A DNA stretch of 64,000 nt from a virus (IMGVR_UViG_3300020411_000003), one strand, 5' to 3'. Shown: positions 27,864 through 40,071, numbered from the stretch's first letter. Numbers and translations: made by a program. The notes: generated by a model from the letters alone, not told the origin.

Positions 27864-27995
27864 TCAGTAACACAACTCGCATCGGATGCCAGCACCTTGA
27901 TAGAATGCCAACATCTCAAGTGCTTTCGCTTCGGTGCTGAAAGAAATCTTTCTAGCGTTGCGTTGGTCGTTGGGTGTCCAGTAGCGAATAGTCAT
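27864..27995 (-). CDS. Small hypothetical protein (43 aa), not in ORF track
   Basis: MTIRYWTPNDQRNARKISFSTEAKALEMLAFYQGAGIRCELCY; TAATG coupling to the upstream gene. Confidence 0.65.
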   Translation of the reverse strand: MTIRYWTPNDQRNARKISFSTEAKALEMLAFYQGAGIRCELCY

Positions 27996-28300
27996 TAATT
28001 AAAAATGGCGTTGGTTTGCACTTGTGAGATGAGAACAGATTCTTGACTGAACTGTTTCTTATATGCTGCTGCTATGCAGTTGAGTGATATCATGTGATCA
28101 TCAACCTCAGAGTCAGGGCATTCAAGATAGAAAATCTTGGTCTGTTCAAGTGTACCTTTCCAGAGACCCTCACCGTCTATGAATGTGCCATACTCGAAGT
28201 GTGGCATAATCTCACGGCGAATAAACTCATCCATCATGTAATCAGTAACTGTGCCATTGTTGGGAATGTCACGACCCATGATGAGTTCAAGTCTTTTCAA
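27995..28300 (-). CDS. DUF3574-like protein
   Basis: GRDIPNNGTV...EFIRREIMPHF...DGEGLWKG...AYKKQFSQESVL. TTG start with SD AGGAG. Confidence 0.75.
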   Translation of the reverse strand: MKRLELIMGRDIPNNGTVTDYMMDEFIRREIMPHFEYGTFIDGEGLWKGTLEQTKIFYLECPDSEVDDHMISLNCIAAAYKKQFSQESVLISQVQTNAIFN

Positions 28301-28326: not shown

Positions 28327-28382
28327 ATTATACACAAAAAAAGACCCCGTGCTAGGGGTCTTGGGACACTTTGTGAACTGTC
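28327..28382 (-). promoter_or_regulatory. Palindrome-spacer-TATAAT early module 1
   Basis: GACAGTT-CACA-AAGTGTC, 32 nt containing hairpin AAGACCCC/GGGGTCTT plus T-tract, then TATAAT. Confidence 0.85.
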
Positions 28383-28626
28383 ACCCAGTAATAAAACAAT
28401 CGGGTGGGTTCTTGCCATAATGGGTTGAGATGATCTCGTCTGCTGTCTCTTCGAATTCTTGATCATTGATGTGATCAATTAATTCTCTCTCAGACATTGA
28501 ACCGAAATACTCAGTAAGACTAGAGCGAATGTATCGCTCCATGTCGTTGTTGTTCATTCGGTCGAGTTCGATTTCAACGTAGTCTTTGACTAACCAATCG
28601 AAGGTGCAATCATTCGCTTCGGGCAT
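28381..28626 (-). CDS. Hypothetical acidic protein (81 aa)
   Basis: Likely start MPEANDC at 28626 (TAATG coupling). Confidence 0.65.
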   Translation of the reverse strand: MPEANDCTFDWLVKDYVEIELDRMNNNDMERYIRSSLTEYFGSMSERELIDHINDQEFEETADEIISTHYGKNPPDCFITG

Positions 28627-28772
28627 TATTGGCACATGTCCTCGAATCTTTGACGGACAGCGAATTCGATGTCGTCTGAATTGCACATAGCGATGTCACC
28701 TGTTTCGGTGAGTTCGCTGATGACCTCTTCGTAAAGAGATTCTAAAATTGATTCGTGATGAAGTGTGCTCAT
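28626..28772 (-). CDS. Hypothetical protein (48 aa)
   Basis: Likely start MSTLHHESILE at 28772 (TAATG coupling). Confidence 0.7.
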   Translation of the reverse strand: MSTLHHESILESLYEEVISELTETGDIAMCNSDDIEFAVRQRFEDMCQ

Positions 28773-28927
28773 TAGTCGTAGCAAAATGGGGTTGGATTGA
28801 AAATGATCTCGCATGCAGCGTCGAAGTCTGCTTCGTTGATGTGATCGGGTACACCCAAATCCATTAACATTACAAGAGCGTCTGCGAGTGCGGTCTCTTG
28901 TGCTTCGGTGAGTTTGATGTTTCTCAT
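28772..28927 (-). CDS. Hypothetical protein (51 aa), probably leaderless
   Basis: ATG at 28927 (MRNIKLTEAQE) is 6 nt after TATAAT. Confidence 0.7.
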   Translation of the reverse strand: MRNIKLTEAQETALADALVMLMDLGVPDHINEADFDAACEIIFNPTPFCYD

Positions 28928-28933
28928 GTGCTT

Positions 28934-29009
28934 ATTATAATCCGTCTGCATGAACAATCAAGCAAATGTAACGGATTACAACAACGATGAGGACAGTTCA
29001 ATAACTGAC
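28934..29009 (-). promoter_or_regulatory. Palindrome-spacer-TATAAT early module 2 (long spacer)
   Basis: GTCAGTT-ATTG-AACTGTC, 52 nt, TATAAT. Confidence 0.75.
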
Positions 29010-29129
29010 CGTGTAATCAAGATCCAAAGCGACAAATGAATTAGAATGCGCTTCTATAATGTAGTCATCCTCTTCGGGGTGCTCATCATAGTATTTTAAT
29101 TCATTGTCTACGTACTCTTCCCAGGTCAT
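28998..29129 (-). CDS. Small acidic protein (43 aa), not in ORF track
   Basis: MTWEEYVDNELKYYDEHPEEDDYIIEAHSNSFVALDLDYTVSY. SD-like GAGGGAG and its own promoter. Confidence 0.55.
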   Translation of the reverse strand: MTWEEYVDNELKYYDEHPEEDDYIIEAHSNSFVALDLDYTVSY

Positions 29130-29154
29130 CGGCAGCTCCCTCGCAGTACTTGTA

Positions 29155-29183
29155 ATTATAACATGAATAGCACATCTTCACAA
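29155..29183 (-). promoter_or_regulatory. Sigma70-like early promoter
   Basis: TTGTGA-17 nt-TATAAT. Confidence 0.65.
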
Positions 29184-29276
29184 AAGTCTTTGCATAAAGA
29201 AACAATGCATAAGGCAGCAACGTTTCATTGCATTGCGAAGCAATGTAGCGCAATTGGATTTCTCTCCTATAGGTAT

Positions 29277-29320
29277 AAAAAAAGAGGGCGGTCCGTTGGT
29301 GGCGTGTTGCGTTACGGACC
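29277..29320 (-). terminator. Possible terminator
   Basis: GGTCCGT...ACGGACC stem (17-nt loop), then GCCCTC and T7. Atypical geometry. Confidence 0.45.
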
Positions 29321-29359
29321 TTTAATAATAATAGTAAACCTAATTAACCCTTACGGATA

Positions 29360-29674
29360 TCACCTGACTATGGTGTATCCGTCGAAAAATGGGGTGTTAC
29401 GGTCTCCAATGTACCAGGTCCAGTCATGCTGGAAGATACGTAGACCATACCCGAAAAAGTTCTCAAGTAGAGCATTTAGACGTGACTTGGTTGTGACTGT
29501 CTCCCAACCTGCACTGCTCAATTGCAAATCGCCATTGTCATGGACCACAGCGATTAGATTGTTATGCAAATACACCTCTGAACGGTTTCCCATTCTGTCA
29601 ACACGTGTGTTGCTGTTGTGCCATGATACACGGTTGTTAACGGCGTTGTTCATTTGCTTTTCAATCTTTCTCAT
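29360..29674 (-). CDS. Conserved phage early hypothetical protein (104 aa)
   Basis: MRKIEKQMN...VYLHNNLIA...GWETVTTKSRLNAL, a motif I recall from many phage early regions. Sits directly behind module 3. Confidence 0.8.
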   Translation of the reverse strand: MRKIEKQMNNAVNNRVSWHNSNTRVDRMGNRSEVYLHNNLIAVVHDNGDLQLSSAGWETVTTKSRLNALLENFFGYGLRIFQHDWTWYIGDRNTPFFDGYTIVR

Positions 29675-29699
29675 AGATGCTTTGGTTGAGTACTCCTTA

Positions 29700-29755
29700 A
29701 TTATAGGGCGTGGGGTGCATAATGCAATGCACCCTGTGCCACTTTTTCAACTGGT
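29700..29755 (-). promoter_or_regulatory. Palindrome-spacer-TATAAT early module 3
   Basis: ACCAGTT-GAAA-AAGTGGC, 32 nt containing hairpin GGGTGCA/TGCACCC, TATAAT. Confidence 0.85.
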
Positions 29756-29941
29756 TTGACTATCGTAATAGTCGTGGACGAGTGTGACAGAATTAATATC
29801 CCACTCGCTCACATATTCATCAATGACATCAAATGAATTAATGTCAGCGTGTGCAAGTTCTCTCGCTGCGTCCTCTGACTCAGCATCAACCTCAATGGTG
29901 AAATAGTTCACCTCGCAACACTCAATTAAAAATGTTTTCAT
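29747..29941 (-). CDS. Hypothetical protein (64 aa)
   Basis: YFTIEVDAESEDAARELA pattern; ATGA coupling. Confidence 0.7.
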   Translation of the reverse strand: MKTFLIECCEVNYFTIEVDAESEDAARELAHADINSFDVIDEYVSEWDINSVTLVHDYYDSQTS

Positions 29942-30390
29942 TGTCCTAGATAACCAGCGAACATCATTCCTGGTTCATCATAAAACCAAGTGCAGTCAAC
30001 ATCTGGGTATTGTTCACGAAGTTCATAATAGATCCCCTCTGGTGGTGCCCAGGCAGTTTCGAATTCACATTCAAAACTGTATTCGTCACCATCACAATCA
30101 GGTTGATCTATATCCCACTTCGTACCCCAGTTGTTCACGTTCCAATCATACCAGCGATCATCATTTTTACCATCTGGGAAATCATACGTTGTCCACATGA
30201 TAGACCCATCTGGATTTTTCATCTCTCGCTTGACTGGTAATTCGCCTGCCTCGTTTGGTGTATTTTTCCAATCAGGACTAGGTTTGATCTGATTGAATAC
30301 ATTATCACTTTCAAAGATCTTCCGAAGTTTAGCAATTTGCTCTGTGTCTTCAGAATAGAATGAAACACGATTGTTGCACCAATTAGGCAT
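29938..30390 (-). CDS. DUF1281 / YubB ferredoxin-like family protein
   Basis: MPNWCNN...WYDWNVNNWGTKWD...FETAWAPP...YDEPG. SD GGAGAG. Confidence 0.8.
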   Translation of the reverse strand: MPNWCNNRVSFYSEDTEQIAKLRKIFESDNVFNQIKPSPDWKNTPNEAGELPVKREMKNPDGSIMWTTYDFPDGKNDDRWYDWNVNNWGTKWDIDQPDCDGDEYSFECEFETAWAPPEGIYYELREQYPDVDCTWFYDEPGMMFAGYLGQ

Positions 30391-30410
30391 AGACTCTCCA
30401 TTTAGGTTTG

Positions 30411-30486
30411 ATGTGGACGAGGTTCAAATTAAAGGCGTGTTCTACATAACTTAATTGAAGGTCTCCGCCACCCGTGCCGTCCACAT
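30411..30486 (-). ncRNA. Candidate structured leader or small RNA (76 nt)
   Basis: Terminal 9-bp inverted repeat ATGTGGACG/CGTCCACAT and an inner stem TTCAATTAAG/CTTTAATTTGAA. Starts 4 nt after the TATAAT of module 4. Confidence 0.5.
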
Positions 30487-30490
30487 ATTC

Positions 30491-30546
30491 ATTATAGACA
30501 AAAAAAGACCCCTGTTAAGGGGTCTTGTGACACTAATTAAATTGAC
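30491..30546 (-). promoter_or_regulatory. Palindrome-spacer-TATAAT early module 4
   Basis: GTCAATT-TAAT-TAGTGTC, 32 nt containing AAGACCCC/GGGGTCTT hairpin plus T-tract (nearly identical to module 1), TATAAT. Confidence 0.85.
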
Positions 30547-30797
30547 ACACTCTGCACGTATTTCAACGTTGCATCGTATACAGTGCGAACATCCTTGACT
30601 AATTCCTGGACCTCGTACTGATGGATTGCCCATCGTGCCTTTATGTCCTTGATGTATCGATCAGCAGTGATTAGTCTTGCTGATGATGGACGGGAAGACT
30701 TAACAACTGTTTTTGTTGGTGTCTTCTTTACTGCGGTGACCTTGCGTGTGCGTCTCTTACGAGGTGCTTTTGCTGGTGCTGTTGCAGTTGCTGTCAT
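30537..30797 (-). CDS. Basic protein with Lys/Arg/Thr-rich N-terminal tail (86 aa)
   Basis: MTATATAPAKAPRKRRTRKVTAVKKTPTKT... The track ATG at 30827 overlaps the -10 box, so 30797 is preferred. Confidence 0.75.
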   Translation of the reverse strand: MTATATAPAKAPRKRRTRKVTAVKKTPTKTVVKSSRPSSARLITADRYIKDIKARWAIHQYEVQELVKDVRTVYDATLKYVQSVSI

Positions 30798-30825
30798 AAA
30801 TGAATCAAATTTGATTGACTGATTC

Positions 30826-30900
30826 ATTATAGAGGGTGGCAGTTGACAAAATCACGAGTGTTAAGAGATTGTTGTAAAAAAGTCCAGTTTATCAACTGTC
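30826..30900 (-). promoter_or_regulatory. Palindrome-spacer-TATAAT early module 5 (long spacer)
   Basis: GACAGTT-GATA-AACTGGA, 51 nt, TATAAT. Confidence 0.75.
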
Positions 30901-30911
30901 CACCAATTGTC

Positions 30912-31082
30912 CTATGTCATATGGTCGTCATGATAGAATGCATATTCATCTTTTTTAAACTTGGATACTTTCTTTTTCTTATTCCTCCTTACATTTTTGA
31001 TATCAAATCCATAATCATCGAAGTCATTAACATATACATCCTTAATATTGGACGATTTGTTATACTTACTGTGTTTTGCCAT
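30912..31082 (-). CDS. Small basic protein (56 aa), not in ORF track
   Basis: MAKHSKYNKSSNIKDVYVNDFDDYGFDIKNVRRNKKKKVSKFKKDEYAFYHDDHMT. AATAAATA late-like motif upstream (31105-31112). Confidence 0.7.
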   Translation of the reverse strand: MAKHSKYNKSSNIKDVYVNDFDDYGFDIKNVRRNKKKKVSKFKKDEYAFYHDDHMT

Positions 31083-31103
31083 TGTGACAGCGAGCGTGGT
31101 GGT

Positions 31104-31352
31104 TTATTTATTCTCTACCAGGACACCTGATTTGATGGACTGATTAATAAATCGTCCCACAGATCCCCCTTCTAATTGTAATTCATGAGATGTAAGGGTT
31201 TCACATAGTTTATCAACAAATTGTTGTACATTTTGACAATTAAAGACATATTCTTTGTCTATATTGCTATTATAGACGATTTTCACAGTGTTGTCAAGTG
31301 TTTCGACTGATTTAATCGCACTTGATGTGAATTTATCGTAAATCATTGACAT
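31104..31352 (-). CDS. KTSC-like small protein
   Basis: SSAIKSV...VKIVYNSNIDKEYVF...SVGRFINQSI resembles the KTSC pattern SSxIxSVGYD...Y.Y...SxGxYFNxxI. Confidence 0.55.
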   Translation of the reverse strand: MSMIYDKFTSSAIKSVETLDNTVKIVYNSNIDKEYVFNCQNVQQFVDKLCETLTSHELQLEGGSVGRFINQSIKSGVLVENK

Positions 31353-31379
31353 TTTAGGGCGTTTGCATTAAGTTTAACT

Positions 31380-31735
31380 CGAAAAAACTCGAAAAAACGC
31401 AAAAATACACTTTTTAACCTTTTTAAAGTTCTTAAAAAGTCAAAAAAGTCAAATTTCGTGCTTTTTCGTTTTCCACAGGTTGTGAAAAACTCAAAAAGTG
31501 CTGTTTTTGCTGTTTTCCTCGCTTCTCCCCATATTATAGAGGATCTTCGAGTGTTTTCGAGTCTTTTTGTGACACTTTGGGAACTGGCACAAGGGGACTT
31601 GACAAACGGTAGGGCGCAGCCTAAGACGACATCTCTAGAGCACCTTACATATATTTTTTAAATGATTTAAAAAGTTTTCCACAACACCTCTAAAAACTGT
31701 GGAAAACTCAGTTGTACCAGTGTGCGGAGTGTCAT
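31380..31735. other. Non-coding locus with DnaA-box-like 9-mers, phased A/T tracts and an AT-rich patch (origin-like)
   Basis: TTTTCCACA at 31469-31477 (+), 31675-31683 (+) and 31698-31706 (-), and TTTTTCACA at 31481-31489 (-). A/T tracts recur about every 10 nt over 31382-31516. AT-rich run at 31649-31673. Confidence 0.55.
31533..31588 (-). promoter_or_regulatory. Palindrome-spacer-TATAAT early module 6
   Basis: GCCAGTT-CCCA-AAGTGTC, 32 nt, TATAAT. Confidence 0.85.
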
Positions 31736-31920
31736 CAATCCAACCCCAATCCAGGTAGATTGTCTCTAGACTGTTCATAGACTGCATACTGTCTTTTTAC
31801 GATAGATTTCATGTCATTTAGATATGATTGCATGATACATTCATCACTGTTTGATTTAATTAAATCTTGTATGTGTAGTATGTGTTCTGCTATGAATAAC
31901 AGTTTAGTTTGGTTGTTCAT
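31735..31920 (-). CDS. Hypothetical protein (61 aa)
   Basis: MNNQTKLLFIAEHILHIQDLI... Confidence 0.65.
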   Translation of the reverse strand: MNNQTKLLFIAEHILHIQDLIKSNSDECIMQSYLNDMKSIVKRQYAVYEQSRDNLPGLGLD

Positions 31921-32053
31921 TCTCACAATAGTCTATGTCAATTTCACATAAGATGTCATTTCTATCTTGTACGATAGGTTTAAAGTATTCAATCATTGTT
32001 GATCCTAATACTGACCCACATAGAATAGTGAGTAGAATTAATACAATTCTCAT
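31904..32053 (-). CDS. Small membrane/secreted protein (49 aa), not in ORF track
   Basis: MRIVLILLTILCGSVLGSTMIEYFKPIVQDRNDILCEIDIDYCENEQPN; ATGA coupling. Confidence 0.65.
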   Translation of the reverse strand: MRIVLILLTILCGSVLGSTMIEYFKPIVQDRNDILCEIDIDYCENEQPN

Positions 32054-32232
32054 TGATAATATGCTGGTTTGTATTTGTTATTGTATGTCATGCCCGACTC
32101 ATTCTCTACTGTTCTTCGTAGTTCATTTAATTCTTCATTGATTACATCATTACATTCAGTCAATTGTTCTGCTTCAATCAGATATAATACTAATTGTATT
32201 TGTGCATCTGATAATGGAATAAGAGTTTTCAT
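32050..32232 (-). CDS. Hypothetical protein (60 aa)
   Basis: Coupled ORF within the co-oriented operon. Confidence 0.6.
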   Translation of the reverse strand: MKTLIPLSDAQIQLVLYLIEAEQLTECNDVINEELNELRRTVENESGMTYNNKYKPAYYQ

Positions 32233-32795
32233 CGTTTAAATGTCAGATTAAATGAGAGTGAGACACGATTGTGATTTGTTTCATTGATACGTGTACCATG
32301 CATAAGAAATGATGGCCACAACACGATTAGTCCTTTCTTTGGTATGATTTGTCGTGCCATGTCTAGATGAGCAATCATATAATTGTTCTCAGACACGTAG
32401 TGTGGTGAATGAAAGTAAATGTTCCCATCCCTTTGGTTGGTACTCACATAATACACGCCACTGATGTCGCTGCCACCATGACTGTGCAAGTGTGCATACT
32501 GTCCATTAGTAGTTGACGTGAACCATGAGTTGTTAATATCATAGGGATCATGTGATTTAATACCAATATCATTTAAGTATTGTGTCACATGATATTGAAG
32601 AAACAACTGAAATTTCTCTGACTTTTCTATCACATTTGATTCAAATGGATTAGGTGTCAGATGATGTGTATCAGATGACCAACCAGGACGATGAACAAAC
32701 TCGGTGAGTGTTAAATCATCATTGAGTTCTTTTCTCTCTGGTATAGAACATTGATACTCATATAAGGGAAGGGGAAACCACTGTTCAGTTGCCAT
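32229..32795 (-). CDS. 2OG-Fe(II) oxygenase (TIGR02466-like)
   Basis: SWFT...HLHSHGGSDISGVYYV...GNIYFH...GLIVLWPSFLMHGT...RVSLSFN (HxH...H triad and RxS). Confidence 0.88.
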   Translation of the reverse strand: MATEQWFPLPLYEYQCSIPERKELNDDLTLTEFVHRPGWSSDTHHLTPNPFESNVIEKSEKFQLFLQYHVTQYLNDIGIKSHDPYDINNSWFTSTTNGQYAHLHSHGGSDISGVYYVSTNQRDGNIYFHSPHYVSENNYMIAHLDMARQIIPKKGLIVLWPSFLMHGTRINETNHNRVSLSFNLTFKR

Positions 32796-33028
32796 TAGTT
32801 TTTAAGATATTGAAATGTATGAGGTCCTGTTGGTTCTTTGATTTCAAATTCAACTGTTTCAAACAATCGCATGAGAGTCTTTGAATACATTCTGTATCCA
32901 TTACCCACATACAATTGTCCTAACAACACTGAAATTGTAGCAGATGACCAAAAGAAGTAATACCATCGTGATTTTACTTGCGCCCTTACCTTATCTCTTT
33001 TACTAGTCATACAAATTGTTCTGTTCAT
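32795..33028 (-). CDS. Small membrane protein (77 aa), probably leaderless
   Basis: RDKVRAQVKSRWYYFFWSSATISVLLGQLYVG; ATG 5 nt after TATAAT. Confidence 0.75.
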   Translation of the reverse strand: MNRTICMTSKRDKVRAQVKSRWYYFFWSSATISVLLGQLYVGNGYRMYSKTLMRLFETVEFEIKEPTGPHTFQYLKN

Positions 33029-33033
33029 TAGAC

Positions 33034-33067
33034 ATTATAAAACCCCTGACAGTATTTGTCAAGGGTT
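33034..33067 (-). promoter_or_regulatory. Consensus sigma70 promoter embedded in an 11-bp terminator-like hairpin
   Basis: AACCC-TTGACA-AATAC-TGTCAGGGGTT-T-TATAAT; TTGACA-17-TATAAT. Confidence 0.8.
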
Positions 33068-33094
33068 ATGTGGATGAATTATTCTATTGTAATG

Positions 33095-33256
33095 TTAGGG
33101 AAGCAACGACCTACACATTCGTTTGTCTCCATGCACTGCATCTGCTTCAATTATACAGTCGTAGTAGTCATCTAATCTTGTGAGCGTGTCCTGTGTAGTG
33201 GGGTGCTCGATATGTTTCCACTCTGCTAATTGGTTCTGCGAGATGAGATTGTGCAT
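33095..33256 (-). CDS. Small Cys-pair protein (53 aa), not in ORF track
   Basis: MHNLISQNQLAEWKHIEHPTTQDTLTRLDDYYDCIIEADAVHGDKRMCRSLLP. SD GAGG, with CATAAATA late-like motif at 33336-33343. Confidence 0.75.
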   Translation of the reverse strand: MHNLISQNQLAEWKHIEHPTTQDTLTRLDDYYDCIIEADAVHGDKRMCRSLLP

Positions 33257-33401
33257 TTATTGTTACCTCTTTAGAATTTGGTTATCATGATGTAGAGAGA
33301 GATTCACTTCATCGGTCTGTCCTTAATTCTACCACTATTTATGGTGGAATGGACACATTTATGAGTGATGGTAACAATAATTTATGCCTACGTGATTATA
33401 C

Positions 33402-33563
33402 TTAGTCTGCTTGTAAAATGTAATCTATACAGTTTGGGTGACCATGAATGTATGGGACATCCTCAGTTGCTTCTATCTTTGCTTCGTATGAATTCTCTGC
33501 ATATTCACAGATTTCATGTGTATGCATCTGATGGTCATGATAACCAACAACATAGTGTGACAT
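33402..33563 (-). CDS. Small His-rich protein (53 aa), not in ORF track
   Basis: MSHYVVGYHDHQMHTHEICEYAENSYEAKIEATEDVPYIHGHPNCIDYILQAD; TAATG coupling. Confidence 0.75.
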   Translation of the reverse strand: MSHYVVGYHDHQMHTHEICEYAENSYEAKIEATEDVPYIHGHPNCIDYILQAD

Positions 33564-34126
33564 TAGCTTCTAACTCGAAAGACTATACTATATCTATACA
33601 AATGTGGGTGATTCAGTGATGGTCCAAGTCCTCGATGACTGACATAAGCAGGAAATATAATTATTCTTCCTGGTTTGTACTCATGTGTCTCAATGACACG
33701 GTCCTTGTCTAGGATTTGAAACTGTCCTCCCCACTCTTGACACCACTCAGGGTTTGGGAATACCATGATAGTAAGTTCATCACTCATACCTTCTATGGAG
33801 TCTATGTGTGATGATCCATCACATCCAGAGTGTTGTAAGTTGATGAATATCTCTTGCAAATAATACTCATGTGATGTGAGAGAACATATTCTCTCAAACA
33901 TATCAAAGAATGGTTGTGCTTTATCATGTAATACTGTGCATCTATTCAATGACTTGCGTTCAAATAGTCTGCATCCTAACAGTCTATGTGAACCACTGTC
34001 ACCAAATGGCCAGGTCTTACGATTTGCTATGTTATTTGCTTTGTATTCTATCTGATCATTCAATACTTGCATAATATTATACAAGTACTGTTGATCAAAT
34101 GTGTTATCTATTATTTTTGCGATCAT
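33563..34126 (-). CDS. 2OG-Fe(II) oxygenase (prolyl-4-hydroxylase-like)
   Basis: SSHIDS (HxD), WGGQF, PGRIIIFPAYVSHRG, RYSIVF. Confidence 0.88.
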   Translation of the reverse strand: MIAKIIDNTFDQQYLYNIMQVLNDQIEYKANNIANRKTWPFGDSGSHRLLGCRLFERKSLNRCTVLHDKAQPFFDMFERICSLTSHEYYLQEIFINLQHSGCDGSSHIDSIEGMSDELTIMVFPNPEWCQEWGGQFQILDKDRVIETHEYKPGRIIIFPAYVSHRGLGPSLNHPHLYRYSIVFRVRS

Positions 34127-34232
34127 CTTTCACTGATTTCATTGCGAGGTGTTCAATTAACAAATATAACCACACGATACTCAGCACCATGATAGCAAAT
34201 AGTCTGATATTTTCTGCATTAACTACGATCAT
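34104..34232 (-). CDS. Small membrane protein (42 aa), not in ORF track
   Basis: MIVVNAENIRLFAIMVLSIVWLYLLIEHLAMKSVKDDRKNNR; ATGA coupling. Confidence 0.65.
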   Translation of the reverse strand: MIVVNAENIRLFAIMVLSIVWLYLLIEHLAMKSVKDDRKNNR

Positions 34233-34837
34233 GATTCACTCTTTGGATTTATGTAGTAGTTGAAAGCAACACTGATACGATCTTCATCACTGTATGACTC
34301 TTCAACATAATGCCACACATGACCAGGTAATATGTACATTTTACCTGCTTCACTCGGTACACTGTATTGAAAATCATCATACAACTGTGAGTATGTTGAC
34401 CCATCATTGCGAGCCACAATCATCTTGCCACTGTTATCAGGAGTCTTAATGAATGCAACTGCAATTAAATCTGTGCGTCCATGGTGGTGTATAGCATTAT
34501 AGTGATGTTTCTCATTGATGTTCACCCACCAACCCACATGATCTTTACGCAATTTCTTCTTAAACTTACCAGTTGTAATACTATTACACAAATCCCAACA
34601 GTCTTTCTGAAGATTTGAGAGACTTTGTGGGATTTGATTGAGTATTTCAATAGGACACTGTGGTCCAAAGACTGGTGACTGCCAACCTCCGATGTTGCTG
34701 ATAGACTGAGAAGGATAGTCTTGCTTAAGGATGTATGTATCCTCAACAAGTCTATCCAAATCATGATCTAGATTAACAGTGATGATGAAGTCCTGGAATA
34801 TCTCATCCACGACCACACGATTCATGTCAATAGTCAT
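34229..34837 (-). CDS. 2OG-Fe(II) oxygenase (TIGR02466-like)
   Basis: SNIGGWQS, WWVNIN...YNAIHHHG, GKMYILPGHVWHYV, RISVAFN. True start may be 34825. Confidence 0.88.
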   Translation of the reverse strand: MTIDMNRVVVDEIFQDFIITVNLDHDLDRLVEDTYILKQDYPSQSISNIGGWQSPVFGPQCPIEILNQIPQSLSNLQKDCWDLCNSITTGKFKKKLRKDHVGWWVNINEKHHYNAIHHHGRTDLIAVAFIKTPDNSGKMIVARNDGSTYSQLYDDFQYSVPSEAGKMYILPGHVWHYVEESYSDEDRISVAFNYYINPKSES

Positions 34838-35006
34838 CTATTTCATTATGTGCTTTCCATTCTGCATACATGCGTCCGTAGACCATGCCTTCGTTTGATT
34901 TGAGTGGAGATCCTTCAAGAATCTCCCTCTCTCGCTTGTTGATAACATTGAATGCGTCTGAGAGATACTCTCGTTCCCATCCCTTGATACGTTCAGACTT
35001 TTCCAT
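34827..35006 (-). CDS. Conserved hypothetical protein (59 aa), not in ORF track
   Basis: MEKSERIKGWEREYL...EILEGSPLKSNEGMVYGRMYAEWK...; TAATG-type coupling. Confidence 0.7.
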   Translation of the reverse strand: MEKSERIKGWEREYLSDAFNVINKREREILEGSPLKSNEGMVYGRMYAEWKAHNEIDDY

Positions 35007-35147
35007 TTAGCAATCCTTGCATAATTTACGTAGTGTCTCAATGTTTTCTAGGATCTTAGCAGATGCTTCCTCATCATGTTTGGTTTGTGCTTCACAATAT
35101 TGAAGAACCAAAACACGCAATGACTCAGCGATTTGTGATTGATTCAT
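35007..35147 (-). CDS. Hypothetical protein (46 aa), not in ORF track
   Basis: MNQSQIAESLRVLVLQYCEAQTKHDEEASAKILENIETLRKLCKDC fills the gap in the operon. Confidence 0.55.
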   Translation of the reverse strand: MNQSQIAESLRVLVLQYCEAQTKHDEEASAKILENIETLRKLCKDC

Positions 35148-35370
35148 AGAGTTCTTTGAGCTCATACTCGTCGTAAAAATGAGTGGACTCGTTTATATAG
35201 TTGTCGGGATCCATCCACTCGAACCATTCATCCGCAAAAGCGAGGGCATCATCTACCCTTTCCTCCGCAATCAATGCTCTGAAACGATCCATGACCCACT
35301 CACAGATATTGTCACGTTCTCCTGATACACGGATTTCCATGAACTCTGATTCTGGTGTTTGGTTAGTCAT
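35125..35370 (-). CDS. Hypothetical acidic protein (81 aa)
   Basis: DALAFADEWFEWMDP; TAATG coupling. Confidence 0.7.
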   Translation of the reverse strand: MTNQTPESEFMEIRVSGERDNICEWVMDRFRALIAEERVDDALAFADEWFEWMDPDNYINESTHFYDEYELKELYESITNR

Positions 35371-35663
35371 TAGTTACGCTCCAGTGATGCAATGTTGTTC
35401 AAATGATCGTATTGTACAAGGCGATAACCCTCTGGTATCAAGGACTCTAGTGCTTTAACAAACTCAAGAGTGAAACGAGATTGGTAATTCCAAAATGTTC
35501 TGTAATCTCTAGAGTAAGGATCAGCGTTAGTATTAAGTCGAACGGTAAATGCAGAGCGTTCGTTGCACGTGTCGATAGGTGCGAGTAATTCTTTAACATG
35601 AGATACTACCAGTGGAGACAAGCGTTGTGCCTTTAGTTGTTGGTTGTAGAATTTCTTTGACAT
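35370..35663 (-). CDS. Hypothetical protein (97 aa)
   Basis: Directly downstream of the TTGACA/TACACT promoter. Confidence 0.7.
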   Translation of the reverse strand: MSKKFYNQQLKAQRLSPLVVSHVKELLAPIDTCNERSAFTVRLNTNADPYSRDYRTFWNYQSRFTLEFVKALESLIPEGYRLVQYDHLNNIASLERN

Positions 35664-35685
35664 AGTAGGTTGTTACCTGTAGGAT

Positions 35686-35714
35686 AGTGTAGCAGAGAAT
35701 GGTATGAGTGTCAA
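35686..35714 (-). promoter_or_regulatory. Sigma70-like early promoter
   Basis: TTGACA-17 nt-TACACT. Confidence 0.8.
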
Positions 35715-35723
35715 GTGGTGTAT

Positions 35724-36146
35724 CTATATCATGTATAGATACCCACCTGCCCAGTCTGCTCTACGTAAACACTCTAGTCTTGATGCTTCATCCATTAGAT
35801 TGAATCTGATGTGCTTTGCTGGTTTGTTATATCCTGCTGGTTTGTACACATCACCTGTTTTCTTATCTATGAATGCATGTACTGATGAATCTCTGTACTC
35901 ATACTTAGGTGAAGGTCCCATGTCATCAAACTCTTGCATAACAATCTTGATGTACTTACGTCCTACGTATGATACAAATTTGTTAAGACCTGCTGTACCC
36001 TCCATGATCTTAGAGAGAGCACCTTGATGATATCCAGTGGAATCTCCTTCCTTAAGGATAGATCTGTTGTGCATTGCGATGCTATGATCTTCAAAGTCTT
36101 TGTCTAATGCGTTGATTAGTTCTTGTGCTCTTTCTGCTACGGTCAT
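35724..36146 (-). CDS. Conserved phage early protein (140 aa)
   Basis: GRKYIKIV...SVHAFIDKKTGDVYKPAGYNKPAKHIRFNL. Start at 36146 lies behind module 7. Confidence 0.8.
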   Translation of the reverse strand: MTVAERAQELINALDKDFEDHSIAMHNRSILKEGDSTGYHQGALSKIMEGTAGLNKFVSYVGRKYIKIVMQEFDDMGPSPKYEYRDSSVHAFIDKKTGDVYKPAGYNKPAKHIRFNLMDEASRLECLRRADWAGGYLYMI

Positions 36147-36174
36147 GATTAGTAAGATTGTTGTGTATGTACTT

Positions 36175-36230
36175 ATTATAATGGAAAAACAGGCAGTGTG
36201 AACCACCTGTGTACCAGTTTATGAACTGGT
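36175..36230 (-). promoter_or_regulatory. Palindrome-spacer-TATAAT early module 7
   Basis: Perfect ACCAGTT-CATA-AACTGGT, 32 nt containing ACAGG/CCTGT stem plus T-tract, TATAAT. Confidence 0.85.
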
Positions 36231-36530
36231 CTCTAGTATAATATCTCTTACTCTCTCACGATCTAGACTATCACCACCACCCCATGTGTAATGTACATAC
36301 TCTAGGTCACCTTTCTCAATTCTCTCAATGTACACGTCAAGTGCATCTTCAATCTTCTGACTAGTTAATCCATCTATAGGATATAATACATCTGGGTGTG
36401 TTGGTAAGTAGAATGATTCAACATACTCAACGAATAACTGTCTATTTGCTGCTGCTTCTGCTTCTTCAATAGAATATGGTTCATCTGATACCATTCTTTC
36501 AGCGAATTCATTGAGTTGACGTGTCATCAT
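36219..36530 (-). CDS. Hypothetical protein (103 aa)
   Basis: SD AAGGA; WGGGDSLDRERVRD motif; behind module 8. Confidence 0.75.
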   Translation of the reverse strand: MMTRQLNEFAERMVSDEPYSIEEAEAAANRQLFVEYVESFYLPTHPDVLYPIDGLTSQKIEDALDVYIERIEKGDLEYVHYTWGGGDSLDRERVRDIILETSS

Positions 36531-36555
36531 GTGTTCCTTTGTTTGTTATGTACTT

Positions 36556-36610
36556 ATTATAAAGCATATAACCACACATGCAATCAATCGTGTACAGTTT
36601 CTGAACTGTC
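36556..36610 (-). promoter_or_regulatory. Palindrome-spacer-TATAAT early module 8
   Basis: GACAGTT-CAGA-AACTGTA, 31 nt, TATAAT. Confidence 0.85.
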
Positions 36611-36796
36611 CACTTTCTTACACTCTTTCCAATATTGCCTGTACACTAACAAATTACATTGTTTGTAACCATGTAATGTATTCTCATCCTCCCACTGTGC
36701 CACACATAACGTAAAATAATGGTGATCTATAAATGTGATGAAACCTGACTCATCACCGTATTGTATATGATCACCGACAGAGAATGGGAAAGACAT
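36584..36796 (-). CDS. Hypothetical protein (70 aa)
   Basis: VGDHIQY...GFITFID...YFTLCV; co-oriented in the operon. Confidence 0.7.
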   Translation of the reverse strand: MSFPFSVGDHIQYGDESGFITFIDHHYFTLCVAQWEDENTLHGYKQCNLLVYRQYWKECKKVDSSETVHD

Positions 36797-36798
36797 AA

Positions 36799-37017
36799 CT
36801 ATAAGGCAAATTTACTTATAGAAATGCATGTCATGAATGACAGCATAATTACGACATCCCATCCTTTAGTACGTATGAAATATGGTATGCTAATTGCATC
36901 AGCAATAGCATGCATCACAGTACCAGTGATGACATTTACATGAAGGATAATAAAATATGAGATCACAATCATACATGATCCAATAATCCTGCTAATTGTA
37001 TCTACTTTCAATGTCAT
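36799..37017 (-). CDS. Small multi-pass membrane protein (72 aa)
   Basis: Three hydrophobic stretches and IPYFIRTKGWDVVIML; ATGA coupling at 37017. Confidence 0.75.
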   Translation of the reverse strand: MTLKVDTISRIIGSCMIVISYFIILHVNVITGTVMHAIADAISIPYFIRTKGWDVVIMLSFMTCISISKFAL

Positions 37018-37172
37018 GCTACTATCCACTCATGCTTTTCTGCTTTACGCTTACAGTACATACAATACAATGCAGACCATGCAAAGTTGTACACTCTTGA
37101 TGCACCATCACAGTGTGGACATACAATCCATCTACCGTCACGTGGTGCTCGTGTGTGATTGTTTACGTTCAC
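37014..37172 (-). CDS. Zinc-finger protein (52 aa)
   Basis: CPHC...FAWSALYCMYC. GTG start at 37172 with SD GAGG. Confidence 0.75.
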   Translation of the reverse strand: MNVNNHTRAPRDGRWIVCPHCDGASRVYNFAWSALYCMYCKRKAEKHEWIVA

Positions 37173-37195
37173 ATGTACCTCATAGAATATGGTGA

Positions 37196-37291
37196 GCGAA
37201 AACAAAACTGAGGGTCGTCTTTGTATGCATTACCCCAACGGTCATGTGACTGCTTCTAAGTCAGTCTAGTCAGGAACTCGTTTGTTTTCGC
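37196..37291 (-). ncRNA. Candidate structured RNA or leader (96 nt)
   Basis: Perfect 11-bp closing stem GCGAAAACAAA/TTTGTTTTCGC extended by C-GAG/CTC-A-G, with internal hairpin GACTG...CAGTC and GGGT...ACCC. Begins 6 nt after TATAAT. Confidence 0.55.
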
Positions 37292-37297
37292 ATTCTT

Positions 37298-37353
37298 ATT
37301 ATAATGGATAAAGTATCGGTTGCAACCATTTGTTAGACACTTGTAACACTGGC
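37298..37353 (-). promoter_or_regulatory. Palindrome-spacer-TATAAT early module 9
   Basis: GCCAGTG-TTAC-AAGTGTC, 32 nt, TATAAT. Confidence 0.8.
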
Positions 37354-37356
37354 ACA

Positions 37357-37906: not shown

Positions 37907-38688
37907 AGGAATTTCTTAAGAGGTGTGTGACGTGCAATACGGTCGTCTGCCATCTTAACATACTCTTCATGAATTTCAACACCAATGTATCGTCTGTCAT
38001 ATTTCAAGCATGATATGGCAGTAGTTCCTGATCCCATGAATGGATCAAGAACTAGATCATTCACAAAACTATAATATTGAACTATCCTATCAGATAACTC
38101 AGTTGGATATGGTGCTAAGTGTTTTGATGTGGTCTCAGGATTGAAACACCATACATTACTACGTTCATACCCATCAGGAACTAATGATCTTTCAAGTATC
38201 TCAGGTGCATATGATCGTACTGTCTTATCTATAAGAAATGATGCAGGTTTCTTGAATATTAATATAGTCTCTGTTACAAGGTTTGGTTTATATGCTACTG
38301 GTTTACGATGCTGAAAAAATCCACCGTTACGATTAACAGCAGATCCTTCTGGTTTCAACCATATAATATCATCAATGTATTGCCATCCCAATCTCTCCAT
38401 AATACTAAAGAAGTGGAATGGAATCGCAAGTCTCTTACTCTCATGTGCTCTTGACTCACGTGCTTGTATGACTGGTGATAAATTGACAGCACACATTCTA
38501 CCTTGTTCAGTTACTCTGTATACTTCACGAAATATATCTTCAAGAAATTGTAGATACTTATCATACGTAGACCATTGTGCGTATGCCTTTGCATTATAAT
38601 ATGGTGGAGATGTACATGTAAGGTGTACACAATCTCCATCCATCTCAGTCAAATAATTTAATGCATCGTCACATACTATCTTATTCAT
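37903..38688 (-). CDS. Beta-class amino-DNA methyltransferase (N4-C or N6-A)
   Basis: N-terminal TSPPY (motif IV) and C-terminal VLDPFMGSGTT (motif I). Confidence 0.92.
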   Translation of the reverse strand: MNKIVCDDALNYLTEMDGDCVHLTCTSPPYYNAKAYAQWSTYDKYLQFLEDIFREVYRVTEQGRMCAVNLSPVIQARESRAHESKRLAIPFHFFSIMERLGWQYIDDIIWLKPEGSAVNRNGGFFQHRKPVAYKPNLVTETILIFKKPASFLIDKTVRSYAPEILERSLVPDGYERSNVWCFNPETTSKHLAPYPTELSDRIVQYYSFVNDLVLDPFMGSGTTAISCLKYDRRYIGVEIHEEYVKMADDRIARHTPLKKFL

Positions 38689-39104
38689 CCAATGCTCCTC
38701 GATGATGATTTGTTACTGTTACAGTCTCCATTTAATATTGATTTGCGTCCATGACATAGTTTACAGTATGTCTTGACATTACTAGGAACATTATTATGAT
38801 GATCACCATCTAAATGGTCTAGGTCAAGACTAGTCTCGAATCCTACAAATGTAGATACAGGACATGTCCATCCTAAATGACCATCATTATTTTCGCAATA
38901 GTTCTTTTTATGTCTTGTAACACCAGGTCTATCGATTCCTTTCTTACGTGCAGTAGCACAACTAGAACATTCTGATTTGAATGACCAGTACTTCCACTCT
39001 CTTACTTGTACATTATTATTACATCCATCATTGACACATGTAGGAAGTGTGTGTCCTTCTGCAAAGAATCTTGCTTTCTGTTGTTGTGATACTGTAGAAG
39101 GCAT
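38685..39104 (-). CDS. Zn-binding HNH endonuclease
   Basis: DLDHLDGDHHNNVPSNVKTYCKLCH core with upstream Cys pairs. Confidence 0.85.
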   Translation of the reverse strand: MPSTVSQQQKARFFAEGHTLPTCVNDGCNNNVQVREWKYWSFKSECSSCATARKKGIDRPGVTRHKKNYCENNDGHLGWTCPVSTFVGFETSLDLDHLDGDHHNNVPSNVKTYCKLCHGRKSILNGDCNSNKSSSRSIG

Positions 39105-39123: not shown

Positions 39124-40071
39124 CTAGTATAGCGGAAGTTTGTTGGGTATGCTATTGATACGTTCAGTTTGCAAACTGGCATAGTCCTTATGCAATTCAC
39201 ATCCAATGTATGCTCTACTATTCTTCTTAGCAACCATCGCTGTGGTTCCTGATCCTAAGAATGGATCTAGAATAATATCACCCTCCTCAGAACCTGCTAG
39301 AATGCAAGGTTCAATTAAATCAGGTGGGAATGTTGCGAAGTGAGCACCCTTGTAAGGTTTACTAGTTATCGTCCAGACAGATCTTTTATTCTTTGTTCGA
39401 TATGACTTTGTAAGTCCTGTATGGGGTTGTAATCCAGTTCCTTCATTGTGATATTTTCCATTGGATCTGTCACGTGTGCCCCAATCTTTTGCTGGTTCCT
39501 TGATTGCTTCATTGTTATAATAATATTTCTTACTCTTACTTAGTAAAAAGATATATTCATGTGATTTTGTGCATCTATCTCTTACTGACTCAGGCATAGG
39601 ATTTGGTTTGTTCCAAATAATATCCTGCCTCAGATACCAACCATCAGCACGTAGTGCAAATGCTAACATCCAAGGTATACCAATAAGATCCTTGCTTTTC
39701 AATCCTTCTAGTTTATTTCCTCTAGCAGGTGAAAAACTAGGCAAATCTTGATTGGTTTTGCTTACTGTTTGTTTAGGATAGTTCCCATCACTTCTGTAAT
39801 TGTAATAGGTATCACCCATGTTAACCCATAATGTACCATCATCAGCAAGTACATCACGTACACCTCTGAATACTTCTACCAGACTATCAATAAACTGTTC
39901 TGGTGTTTGTTCTTGTCCAATCTGTTCTTCCTCACCACCATAGTCACGTAAACCATAATAAGGTGGAGATGTTACACACATACGTGGTCTCTCAGAGATA
40001 CCAGTTGTGATTTGTGCCTTGAGTGTACCTAGTGTCTTACGACAATCACCAAATAATACTGTGTTTCTCAT
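39124..40071 (-). CDS. Beta-class DNA methyltransferase, M.SmaI/M.Cfr9I-like (probable m4C)
   Basis: CVTSPPYYG, WYLRQDIIWNKPNPMPESVRDRCTKSHEYIFLLSK, HFATFP, ILDPFLGSGTT. Confidence 0.92.
   Translation of the reverse strand: MRNTVLFGDCRKTLGTLKAQITTGISERPRMCVTSPPYYGLRDYGGEEEQIGQEQTPEQFIDSLVEVFRGVRDVLADDGTLWVNMGDTYYNYRSDGNYPKQTVSKTNQDLPSFSPARGNKLEGLKSKDLIGIPWMLAFALRADGWYLRQDIIWNKPNPMPESVRDRCTKSHEYIFLLSKSKKYYYNNEAIKEPAKDWGTRDRSNGKYHNEGTGLQPHTGLTKSYRTKNKRSVWTITSKPYKGAHFATFPPDLIEPCILAGSEEGDIILDPFLGSGTTAMVAKKNSRAYIGCELHKDYASLQTERINSIPNKLPLY

Follow-up and report, generated by a model that had tools for sequence, protein, structure and literature searches.

Organization of the module array

The window analysed here, a 64,000-nt stretch of viral DNA, carries on its minus strand nine modules, seven strong and two weak, in which a copy of CAGTT-N4-AA(C/G)TG precedes a perfect TATAAT box (Table 1). 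All nine had been placed correctly by the original prediction; a tenth copy was missed, a perfect palindrome with a TATACT box inside the 3' end of a DNA methylase gene and ahead of a 139-aa ORF (38685-39104). Gaps are given here from the end of the 14-nt core, CAGTT-N4-AASTG, to the first T of TATAAT, and the distances first reported for modules 1 to 9 from an 18-mer (32, 52, 32, 32, 51, 32, 32, 31 and 32 nt) correspond to core gaps of 34, 54, 34, 34, 53, 34, 34, 33 and 34 nt, that is, 34±1 nt in seven of the nine and 53-54 nt in the other two. The exact core has 14 strand matches in the window against 0.46 expected, a count reached by none of 100 shuffled sequences. When two mismatches were allowed the window was not enriched (55 matches, 46 expected), so that only near-consensus copies count. 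The weak palindromes, in modules 4 (CAATTTAATTAGTG) and 9 (CAGTGTTACAAGTG), are recognised mainly by their flanks and geometry. In module 2 an ATG lies 6 nt past the -10 box, so its mRNA may be leaderless. The stop codon of the upstream ORF falls within the palindrome in modules 1, 2, 3, 4 and 7.

Table 1. Modules, spacer hairpins and predicted downstream genes; gaps in nt, core to -10 box.
Feature	Position	Strand	Details
Module 1	28327..28384	-	dyad GTGACAGTTCACAAAGTGTCCC, core 28367-28380; TATAAT 28327-28332; gap 34
Module 1 hairpin	28341-28362	-	terminator-like, with T-run
Module 1 downstream gene	27995-28300	-	DUF3574; predicted to be driven by module 1
Module 2 (long spacer)	28934..29011	-	core 28994-29007 (CAGTTATTGAACTG); TATAAT 28934-28939; gap 54
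Module 2 opposite-strand box	29042-29047	+	TAGAAT; canonical gap 34
Module 3	29700..29757	-	core 29740-29753 (CAGTTGAAAAAGTG); TATAAT 29700-29705; gap 34
Module 3 hairpin	29707-29740	-	in spacer, no sense-strand T-run
Module 3 downstream gene	29360-29674	-	Kyano_Gp96; predicted to be driven by module 3
Module 4	30491..30548	-	weak dyad GTGTCAATTTAATTAGTGTCAC, core 30531-30544; TATAAT 30491-30496; gap 34
Module 4 hairpin	30505-30526	-	terminator-like, with T-run
Module 4 downstream gene	29938-30390	-	DUF1281_C; predicted to be driven through a long leader
Module 5 (long spacer)	30826..30902	-	core 30885-30898 (CAGTTGATAAACTG); TATAAT 30826-30831; gap 53
Module 5 opposite-strand box	30934-30939	+	TAGAAT; gap 35
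Module 6	31533..31590	-	core 31573-31586 (CAGTTCCCAAAGTG); TATAAT 31533-31538; gap 34
Module 6 downstream ORF	31104-31352	-	82 aa; AT-rich leader of ~180 nt between
Module 7	36175..36232	-	core 36215-36228 (CAGTTCATAAACTG); TATAAT 36175-36180; gap 34
Module 7 hairpin	36189-36210	-	terminator-like
Module 7 downstream gene	35724-36206	-	DUF7717; predicted to be driven by module 7
Module 8	36556..36612	-	core 36595-36608 (CAGTTCAGAAACTG); TATAAT 36556-36561; gap 33
Module 8 downstream ORF	36219-36530	-	103 aa; predicted to be driven by module 8
Module 9	37298..37355	-	weak dyad CAGTGTTACAAGTG, core 37338-37351; TATAAT 37298-37303; gap 34
Module 9 downstream		-	structured leader, then small zinc-finger-like ORF
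Tenth copy	39126..39182	-	perfect palindrome CAGTTTGCAAACTG 39165-39178; TATACT 39126-39131; gap 33

Four spacers, those of modules 1, 3, 4 and 7, hold a hairpin. All four had been described as terminator-like; a sense-strand T-run follows the hairpins of modules 1, 4 and 7, and module 3 has none. The hairpin said to be common to modules 1 and 4 does occur in both (AAGACCCC...GGGGTCTT-T7), and terminator-like hairpins are common in related sites as well. The proposed absence of a -35 box is roughly right, since no conserved hexamer was found across 56 related sites, but a faint T-y-y-A-w-w signal is seen in them 16 nt before the -10 box, often within a hairpin loop, and chance or weak hexamers in hairpin loops are the only -35-like sequence. 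Perfect TATAAT promoters lacking the dyad exist in the same region (29160 and 27826). The motif, centred near -53.5, does not match an NtcA-type site (GTA-N8-TAC near -41.5), and none of the NtcA, CRP, LexA and Pho boxes fits the dyad.

The dyad as a DNA site and the long spacers

The distance to the -10 box stays at 34±1 nt irrespective of a hairpin in the spacer. The right arm reads either AACTG or AAGTG with no compensating change in the left arm CAGTT: some 42% of related sites pair AAGTG opposite CAGTT, the P-TIM40 consensus (CAGTTGGATTAGTG) has poor self-complementarity, and in a near-identical relative arm changes are tolerated without compensation. Uncompensated C/G variation of this kind makes an RNA stem unlikely, and the earlier view that the dyad acts at the DNA level, in a set relation to the -10 box, is supported.

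The long spacers of modules 2 and 5 are not accidents. In L046, a syntenic but divergent relative, the module 2 orthologue has a gap of 55 nt, and the module 5 orthologues have 54 nt both there and in L165. Among related elements without a canonical -10 box, good -10 boxes peak at 54-55 nt (11) and 45 nt (6), against about 1.35 per bin. Strict-pattern IMG/VR samples showed no second spacer class and were flat from 42 to 66 nt. The long-spacer class, seen only with the weight matrix and in orthologous modules, makes up a few per cent of sites and is conserved in relatives and rare elsewhere; the proposed rule of two spacer classes is not general. Both long-spacer palindromes have a TAGAAT box at the canonical distance on the other strand, and so may really serve opposite-strand promoters.

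Cassette boundaries and comparison with PeSLs

That the modules mark cassette boundaries, as originally proposed, agrees with the one comparison on which the indel-boundary result rests: in L046 precisely the cassette bounded by modules 4 and 3 is missing, and three or four additional modules occur elsewhere, with element copies at L046 positions 4343, 4449, 4735 and 5056. The PeSLs of T4-type coliphages and vibriophages (Arbiol 2010; Comeau 2014, PMC4122927) are likewise composite units of a terminator and an early promoter, and both they and the cyanophage units separate the small, variable genes of hyperplastic regions and coincide with indel boundaries when relatives are compared. PeSLs, however, include a -35 box (TTGACA-N17-TATAAT type) and lack a dyad upstream, whereas in the cyanophage unit the hairpin occupies the -35 zone and the dyad lies upstream, and the sequences are unrelated. 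The analogy drawn earlier is good for the terminator-like stem-loop and the indel boundaries, but strictly the units fall outside the PeSL definition, as a -35 box is absent from them.

Occurrence in other cyanomyoviruses and early expression

Hundreds of viral contigs from the ocean carry the same element with the same gap, as do Syn9, P-TIM40, P-SSM7 and P-HM2. Within an IMG/VR sample, gaps of 33, 34 and 35 nt account for 20, 57 and 14 of 139 matches. The strict pattern had no matches in Syn9 and P-RSM6 and one to three in the other reference phages, for which it is too strict, so a weight matrix was used instead, a unit being a matrix match with a -10 box at a gap of 32-36 nt and reversed sequences serving as controls. 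By this measure there are 8 units in Syn9, 19 in P-TIM40, 19 in P-SSM7 and 14 in P-HM2 (0-1 in the reversed controls), and they cluster in small-gene regions (44.8-53 kb in Syn9, 45-55 kb in P-TIM40). All 13 sense-strand units of P-HM2 lie directly upstream of genes of the Early (A) cluster (PHM2_057, 060, 061 (twice), 064, 068 and 135) or the Mid (B) cluster (044, 048, 053, 148, 189 and 198), the two earliest expression clusters of that phage (PMC5082946, S2 Table), and none of the 13 precedes a Mid (C) or Late gene. Close DNA relatives of the present virus in the phage collection were matched as fragments only, and comparison with one of these, 98.7% identical (G001), offered too few differences for any signal of SNP depletion in the modules.

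On this evidence the nine modules are very probably the usual early-gene promoter cassettes of T4-like marine cyanobacterial viruses of the Kyanoviridae type, with a dyad that binds protein. The array is a further instance of a family-wide element and is not special to this phage. An early-gene regulatory element of T4-like cyanophages has reportedly been described by Doron and co-workers in Syn9 and P-TIM40, and we take the palindrome-TATAAT unit to be the same element. Both consist of an upstream element and a -10 box before small early genes, conserved across cyanomyoviruses; the identical dyad and gap are found in the small-gene clusters of Syn9 and P-TIM40, and nothing essential appears to set the unit apart from the reported element. 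The novelty originally claimed is weak; what is particular to this phage is that its copies follow the consensus unusually closely (perfect TATAAT, near-perfect arms) and that two of them have a long spacer. A literature search whose reach did not extend to Doron 2016, Lambrecht 2018 and Puxty 2015 found no description of the palindrome.

Resemblance to host Yfr2 promoters

The motif scan of relatives and hosts suggested in the original prediction found the element again in cyanomyoviruses, but in 301 host-family genomes the strict phage pattern shows no enrichment (49 matches against about 111 in the backwards control), nor does the CACTT...AAGTG variant in hosts. From the strict-pattern result the dyad was taken not to be a host site, a conclusion revised after a direct look at Yfr2 promoters. 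Of 40 regions upstream of Prochlorococcus/Synechococcus Yfr2 (Rfam Cyano-1), 31 have a phage-matrix score above the 95th percentile of controls, and in 28 the best match lies at a fixed place (-52 to -60). The best -10 box at these sites has a gap of 33-37 nt with a mode of 34-35, against 34±1 in the phage. Without recourse to the matrix, the 5-mer most concentrated in position upstream of Yfr2 is CAGTT (19/40), and GACAGTT, a left half-site identical to that of the phage, occurs in 15 of the regions. The right half differs (A-G/C-C-G-n-C-C against AA-C/G-TG-K-C in the phage) and is only a partial match.

The GntR regulator PMM1637/PlmA is said, in work by Lambrecht and co-workers, to bind CGRE1, an element of the Yfr2 promoter. 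Yfr2/CGRE1 promoters and the phage units have in common GACAGTT in place, about 48 nt from core start to -10 box, and no -35 box, whereas the right half of the host site is degenerate or different and the site much less symmetric, so that the phage version resembles an idealised palindrome. Each of five host genomes encodes one GntR protein above the Pfam cut-off (337-468 aa, four of them ~340 aa), with an additional weak, sub-threshold match in one of the five. NCBIfam names just the N-terminal GntR domain of the host protein, and the PlmA subfamily is a candidate assignment. Given the same half-site at the same -10 distance in Yfr2 promoters, the host GntR regulator (PlmA/PMM1637 type) is the likeliest reader of the phage dyad; that it is PlmA itself is suggested by these sequence likenesses, at a little less than an even chance.

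Discussion

The best explanation overall, and one we regard as probable, is that the units are early promoter cassettes whose dyad is read most likely by a host GntR regulator. Each would begin with a DNA site of ~22 bp and two-fold symmetry, GTGnCAGTT-N4-AAsTGkCAC, whose centre lies ~53-54 bp before the predicted start; next would come a variable spacer, in many cases holding the intrinsic terminator of the preceding gene cassette, and last a consensus -10 box without a conserved -35. The -10 box would be recognised by host RNA polymerase carrying its primary sigma factor as soon as the DNA is injected, and the dyad would bind a dimeric protein, held in fixed geometry to polymerase and most likely the one GntR-family regulator of the host (PlmA/PMM1637 type). 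With its centre near -53.5, the dyad does not occupy a textbook activator position. Like CRP-type class I sites (-61.5/-71.5), it is a putative dimer site upstream at fixed distance, and its rarer placements lie about 11 bp and 20-21 bp beyond the usual one; it differs from those sites in centre and motif, and its contact with polymerase is putative.

Alternatively, a protein of the phage itself, delivered with the DNA or made first, could read the dyad and turn the promoters on, or off later. An injected T4 protein modifies RNA polymerase for use of the T4 early promoters, and the cyanophage dyad is more symmetric and uniform than the Yfr2 sites, its exact pattern not being enriched in the 301 host-family genomes. 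Against this, early promoters have to be active at a time when phage proteins have yet to be made, a search of five reference cyanomyoviruses for GntR-type domains, the one fold looked for, gave no match, and the resemblance to Yfr2 in both sequence and distance would be a coincidence; we consider a phage reader unlikely. A repression operator, for example for timed shut-off of early genes whose -10-only promoters would be constitutively strong without the dyad, seems somewhat less likely again. In its favour, many GntR regulators are repressors, a lone -10 box is often enough for marine picocyanobacterial promoters, and P-HM2 early transcripts drop after ~1.5 h (PMC5082946). Against it, a site centred near -53 does not overlap the polymerase footprint at -10/-35, dyad-free TATAAT promoters exist in the same region, and the fixed -10 distance and the minor classes one and two helical turns further out are typical of face-dependent activation.

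Direct contact of the RNA polymerase alpha subunits with the dyad as an upstream promoter element, with no separate factor, would suit its extent (roughly -64 to -43, overlapping the classical UP-element zone) and the finding that the strict pattern, in the 301 host-family genomes, places it in no wider host regulon. UP elements, however, consist of A/T tracts and not of dyads containing G/C, and the same half-site recurs specifically at host Yfr2 promoters, which leaves this reading improbable. It is more improbable still that the palindrome is an RNA hairpin at the 3' end of the upstream transcript, acting in stability or processing, or only a recombination site. Its position at or over the upstream stop codon and before the terminator hairpin in several modules would fit, as would the cassette indels bounded by units, but the distance is fixed to the -10 box rather than to stop codons or terminators, and the arms vary without compensation, as described above, also in the near-identical relative.

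Returning to the host regulator as the reader, it could be speculated, tentatively, that T4-like cyanophages copied and perfected the host PlmA/Yfr2 promoter, wiring early infection to a nitrogen/light regulator, with the same DNA face presented at 34, ~45 and ~55 nt and one palindrome serving both directions. With terminator and promoter fused, each small-gene cassette is a self-contained transcription unit, and the 50-60 bp common to the units would supply homology for cassette gain and loss; such fused units account for the exchange of small early genes in the form of self-contained cassettes. T4-like cyanophages do without the T4 proteins Alt, Mod, MotA and AsiA, and the way in which they begin transcription is understood only in part. 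Should a host nitrogen/light regulator indeed read these promoters, infection by some of the ocean's most abundant viruses would be gated at its very first step by the physiological state of the host cell.

Anatomy of the modules

The minus strand carries the genes of the region between about 26 and 41 kb, and the nine minus-strand units predicted there (modules 1–9, numbered by rising coordinate), each made of an imperfect palindrome separated by a spacer from a perfect TATAAT, were borne out when they were located directly on the sequence. With the gap taken as the distance between the last base of the 14-nt core, CAGTT-N4-AA(C/G)TG, and the start of TATAAT, modules 1 to 9 give, in order, 34, 54, 34, 34, 53, 34, 34, 33 and 34 nt; the distances reported originally agree once 2 is added, since they were counted from an 18-mer. 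The exact core has 14 strand matches in the window, where 0.46 are expected, and 100 shuffles gave nothing close to that number. This enrichment disappeared when the window was searched with two mismatches allowed, and seven copies are therefore counted as strong. Modules 4 and 9 have weak palindromes and are recognised chiefly by their flanks and geometry. Further features are listed in the table.

Hairpins were seen in four spacers, as predicted (modules 1, 3, 4 and 7), and in modules 1, 4 and 7 a sense-strand T-run comes next, so that these hairpins resemble intrinsic terminators. The palindromes of modules 1, 2, 3, 4 and 7 contain the stop codon of the ORF upstream, so that gene ends and regulatory site constrain each other. 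Module 2 lies so close to the next ATG that its predicted transcript may be leaderless. The genes served by the modules (DUF3574, DUF7326, Kyano_Gp96, DUF1281_C and DUF7717) are small genes typical of cyanomyoviruses, and 2OG-Fe(II) oxygenases and two DNA methylases are encoded nearby. Perfect TATAAT boxes without the dyad, the wider two-fold-symmetric site, also occur in the module region.

Features of the window and of related genomes, with coordinates
Feature	Sequence	Coordinates	Remarks
Tenth copy of the core	Window	39165-39178	TATACT at gap 33; missed in the original prediction
Classical promoter	Window	31269-31297	TTGACA-17-TATAAT
Classical promoter	Window	33034-33062	TTGACA-17-TATAAT
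Stop codons inside palindrome	Window	28381-28383, 28998-29000, 29747-29749, 36219-36221	e.g., TGA within GTGACAGTT
Module 2, TATAAT to ATG	Window	28925-28939	Only 6 nt between them
Leader of module 6	Window	31360-31540	AT-rich, ~180 nt, rich in short repeats; precedes next ORF
S-PM2-like stretch	Window	31537-31709	72% identity to S-PM2 DNA adjoining S-PM2 tRNA genes
Block CGTTACATTTGC in module 2 spacer	Window	28960-28975	
Block CGTTACATTTGC	L046	about 3285-3300	
TAGAAT, module 2 palindrome	Window, + strand	29042-29047	
TAGAAT, module 5 palindrome	Window, + strand	30934-30939	
Third + strand core copy	Window, + strand	19120-19133	TAGAAT hexamer too
Extra element copies	L046	4343, 4449, 4735, 5056	
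Replaced leader piece	Window	30435-30468	34 nt
Replaced leader piece	L348 (G001)	8683-8769	87 nt
Dyad-plus-(-10) unit	P-HM2 (NC_015284)	125047-125100	Before peptidase/cobS pair
Dyad-plus-(-10) unit	P-HM2 (NC_015284)	168102-168160	Before high-light-inducible (hli) gene cluster

A probable early-type promoter of cyanomyoviruses

Scanning IMG/VR with the pattern core-N{26,56}-TATAAT gave at least 139 matches, and among the 139 listed there is a sharp peak, with gaps of 33, 34 and 35 nt in 20, 57 and 14 cases, respectively. The 56 distinct gap-34 sites among these listed matches give the consensus R-M-CAGTT-N4-AASTG-K-C-M-C-A; their spacers are variable, often with a GC hairpin and T-run, and TATAAT is followed by a conserved AAnTAyAT and then an A/C-rich leader. 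A weight matrix made from 103 such sites, combined with a -10 box at gap 32–36, found 8 units in Syn9, 19 in P-TIM40, 19 in P-SSM7 and 14 in P-HM2, against 0–1 in reversed-sequence controls, and in these reference T4-like cyanophages the units concentrate in small-gene regions. Across genera the full dyad reads GTGnCAGTT-N4-AAsTGkCAC. The modules represent the usual early-type promoter cassette of cyanomyoviruses, a family-wide element. Doron and colleagues reportedly described, in 2016, 'a novel regulatory element' controlling early genes in Syn9 and P-TIM40; given its presence in these two phages, the dyad-plus-(-10) element is probably the same.

The published assignment of P-HM2 genes to the expression clusters Early (A), Mid (B), Mid (C) and Late (S2 Table of PMC5082946) gives an independent check. 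Each of the 13 sense-strand P-HM2 units immediately precedes an Early (A) or Mid (B) gene; these two clusters hold an estimated 30%, roughly, of the genes. Not one of the 13 stands before Mid (C) or Late genes. Units also stand before the hli cluster and the peptidase/cobS pair, and are not confined to small unknown genes.

DNA site or RNA stem

A palindrome so close to gene ends could act as a stem in RNA or as a site on DNA. Among related sites the left arm hardly ever departs from CAGTT; the right arm divides about evenly between AACTG and AAGTG, and AAGTG would pair G against G in an RNA stem. The P-TIM40 consensus, CAGTTGGATTAGTG, has poor self-complementarity, and in G001, an environmental fragment of 98.7% identity, CAGTT is changed to CAATT and to CAGTC, both uncompensated. 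The distance of the palindrome is fixed relative to the -10 box, and not to stop codons or terminators. Since the arms vary without compensation and the distance is tied to the -10 box, the evidence favours a site on DNA that a protein would bind, in a fixed geometry relative to RNA polymerase. The mechanism proposed originally, in which a dimeric factor sits on one constant face of the DNA and cassettes can be shuffled, is partly supported overall.

Spacer classes and possible two-way palindromes

The two proposed spacer classes fared less evenly. Strict-pattern IMG/VR samples are flat between 42 and 66 nt, with no second peak, and perfect TATAAT boxes in five genomes number 30 at gaps 32–35 and only 3 at 52–54. 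Long spacers are nevertheless kept in relatives: the module 2 orthologue in L046, a syntenic but divergent contig, has a gap of 55, and the module 5 orthologues in L046 and another relative, L165, have gaps of 54. The module 2 spacer shares the internal block CGTTACATTTGC with L046; here GTTACATT resembles half of an RpaB (HLR1) repeat. Among 187 high-scoring strand-elements without a canonical -10 (palindromes being counted once per strand), good -10 boxes pile up at gaps 54–55 (11) and 45 (6), against ~1.35 per bin; these gaps are roughly two helical turns and one past 34. The helical phasing idea is thereby modestly supported, with the long gaps forming a minor class that makes up a few per cent.

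A caveat to this support is that, on the + strand, the palindromes of modules 2 and 5 have TAGAAT at the canonical 34–35 nt. The three TAGAAT-linked copies (hexamers at 29042 and 30934, core at 19120) could be leftward (antisense) promoters. P-TIM40 has a single long-spacer case, whose palindrome, read the other way, belongs to a canonical rightward promoter; together with the opposite-strand TAGAAT boxes, this suggests that a single palindrome may serve two directions.

Possible cassette exchange

Gene order is common to L046 and the window, at 30–85% translated (tblastx) identity. The segment that L046 lacks runs precisely from module 4 to module 3 and holds DUF1281_C and a 64-aa ORF; L046 also has three or four extra modules between the counterpart of the gene at 28632–28772 and the DUF3574 gene. 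Modules 1 and 4 are identical at about 38 of 45 bases. Over 15 kb, the only structural difference between the window and L348 (G001) is the replaced piece of leader just past module 4. PeSLs, the promoter-stem-loop cassettes of T4-type phages, are composite terminator-promoter units serving as exchange points (PMC4122927). The predicted likeness holds in part: in this one comparison, with L046, indels are bounded by modules, which fits putative exchange points of composite terminator-promoter type, but the modules are not PeSLs, which contain a -35 box and lack the upstream dyad seen in the modules of this phage.

A candidate host regulator

Among 301 genomes of the Prochlorococcus/Synechococcus family, the strict module pattern matched 49 times, fewer than the ~111 matches of a backwards control. 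It missed host sites at the promoters of Yfr2, a small RNA, because the host right half-site, roughly A-G/C-C-G-n-C-C, differs from that of the phage. When the phage matrix was scored over the 115 nt upstream of 40 Yfr2-type RNAs (located with Rfam Cyano-1, matches starting with the GTGTGAGGAG motif), 31 regions scored higher than the 95th percentile set by random windows drawn from these loci. In 28 regions the best match lay at one place, 52–60 nt before the RNA model start, and the best -10 box in these stood 33–37 nt past the core (mode 34–35), as in the phage. Judged independently of the matrix, the 5-mer with the most concentrated positions in the upstream regions is CAGTT (19/40), and GACAGTT is present in 15 of the 40. 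Several Synechococcus-type regions (L363, L371, L382, L389 and L395) have a second inverted arrangement near the RNA start, AACTGGCAC-n-GTGCCAGTT, besides or in place of the -56 site.

Lambrecht and colleagues reportedly found, in 2018, that the GntR regulator PMM1637 binds the Yfr2 promoter element CGRE1. Five host genomes each encode one GntR protein above Pfam's cut-off (337–468 aa), with an extra, weak, sub-threshold match in one of them, and no GntR domain was found in five reference cyanomyoviruses. For the one protein scanned further (G002, 338 aa), a family was named for the N-terminal domain alone. The host GntR protein is presumably PMM1637 (PlmA), the reported binder of CGRE1. Given the resemblance to Yfr2 sites, and GntR proteins in the hosts and none in the phages, this host regulator is the best candidate for the predicted reader of the phage dyad. 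The main addition of this analysis is thus a specific and testable host candidate for that role.
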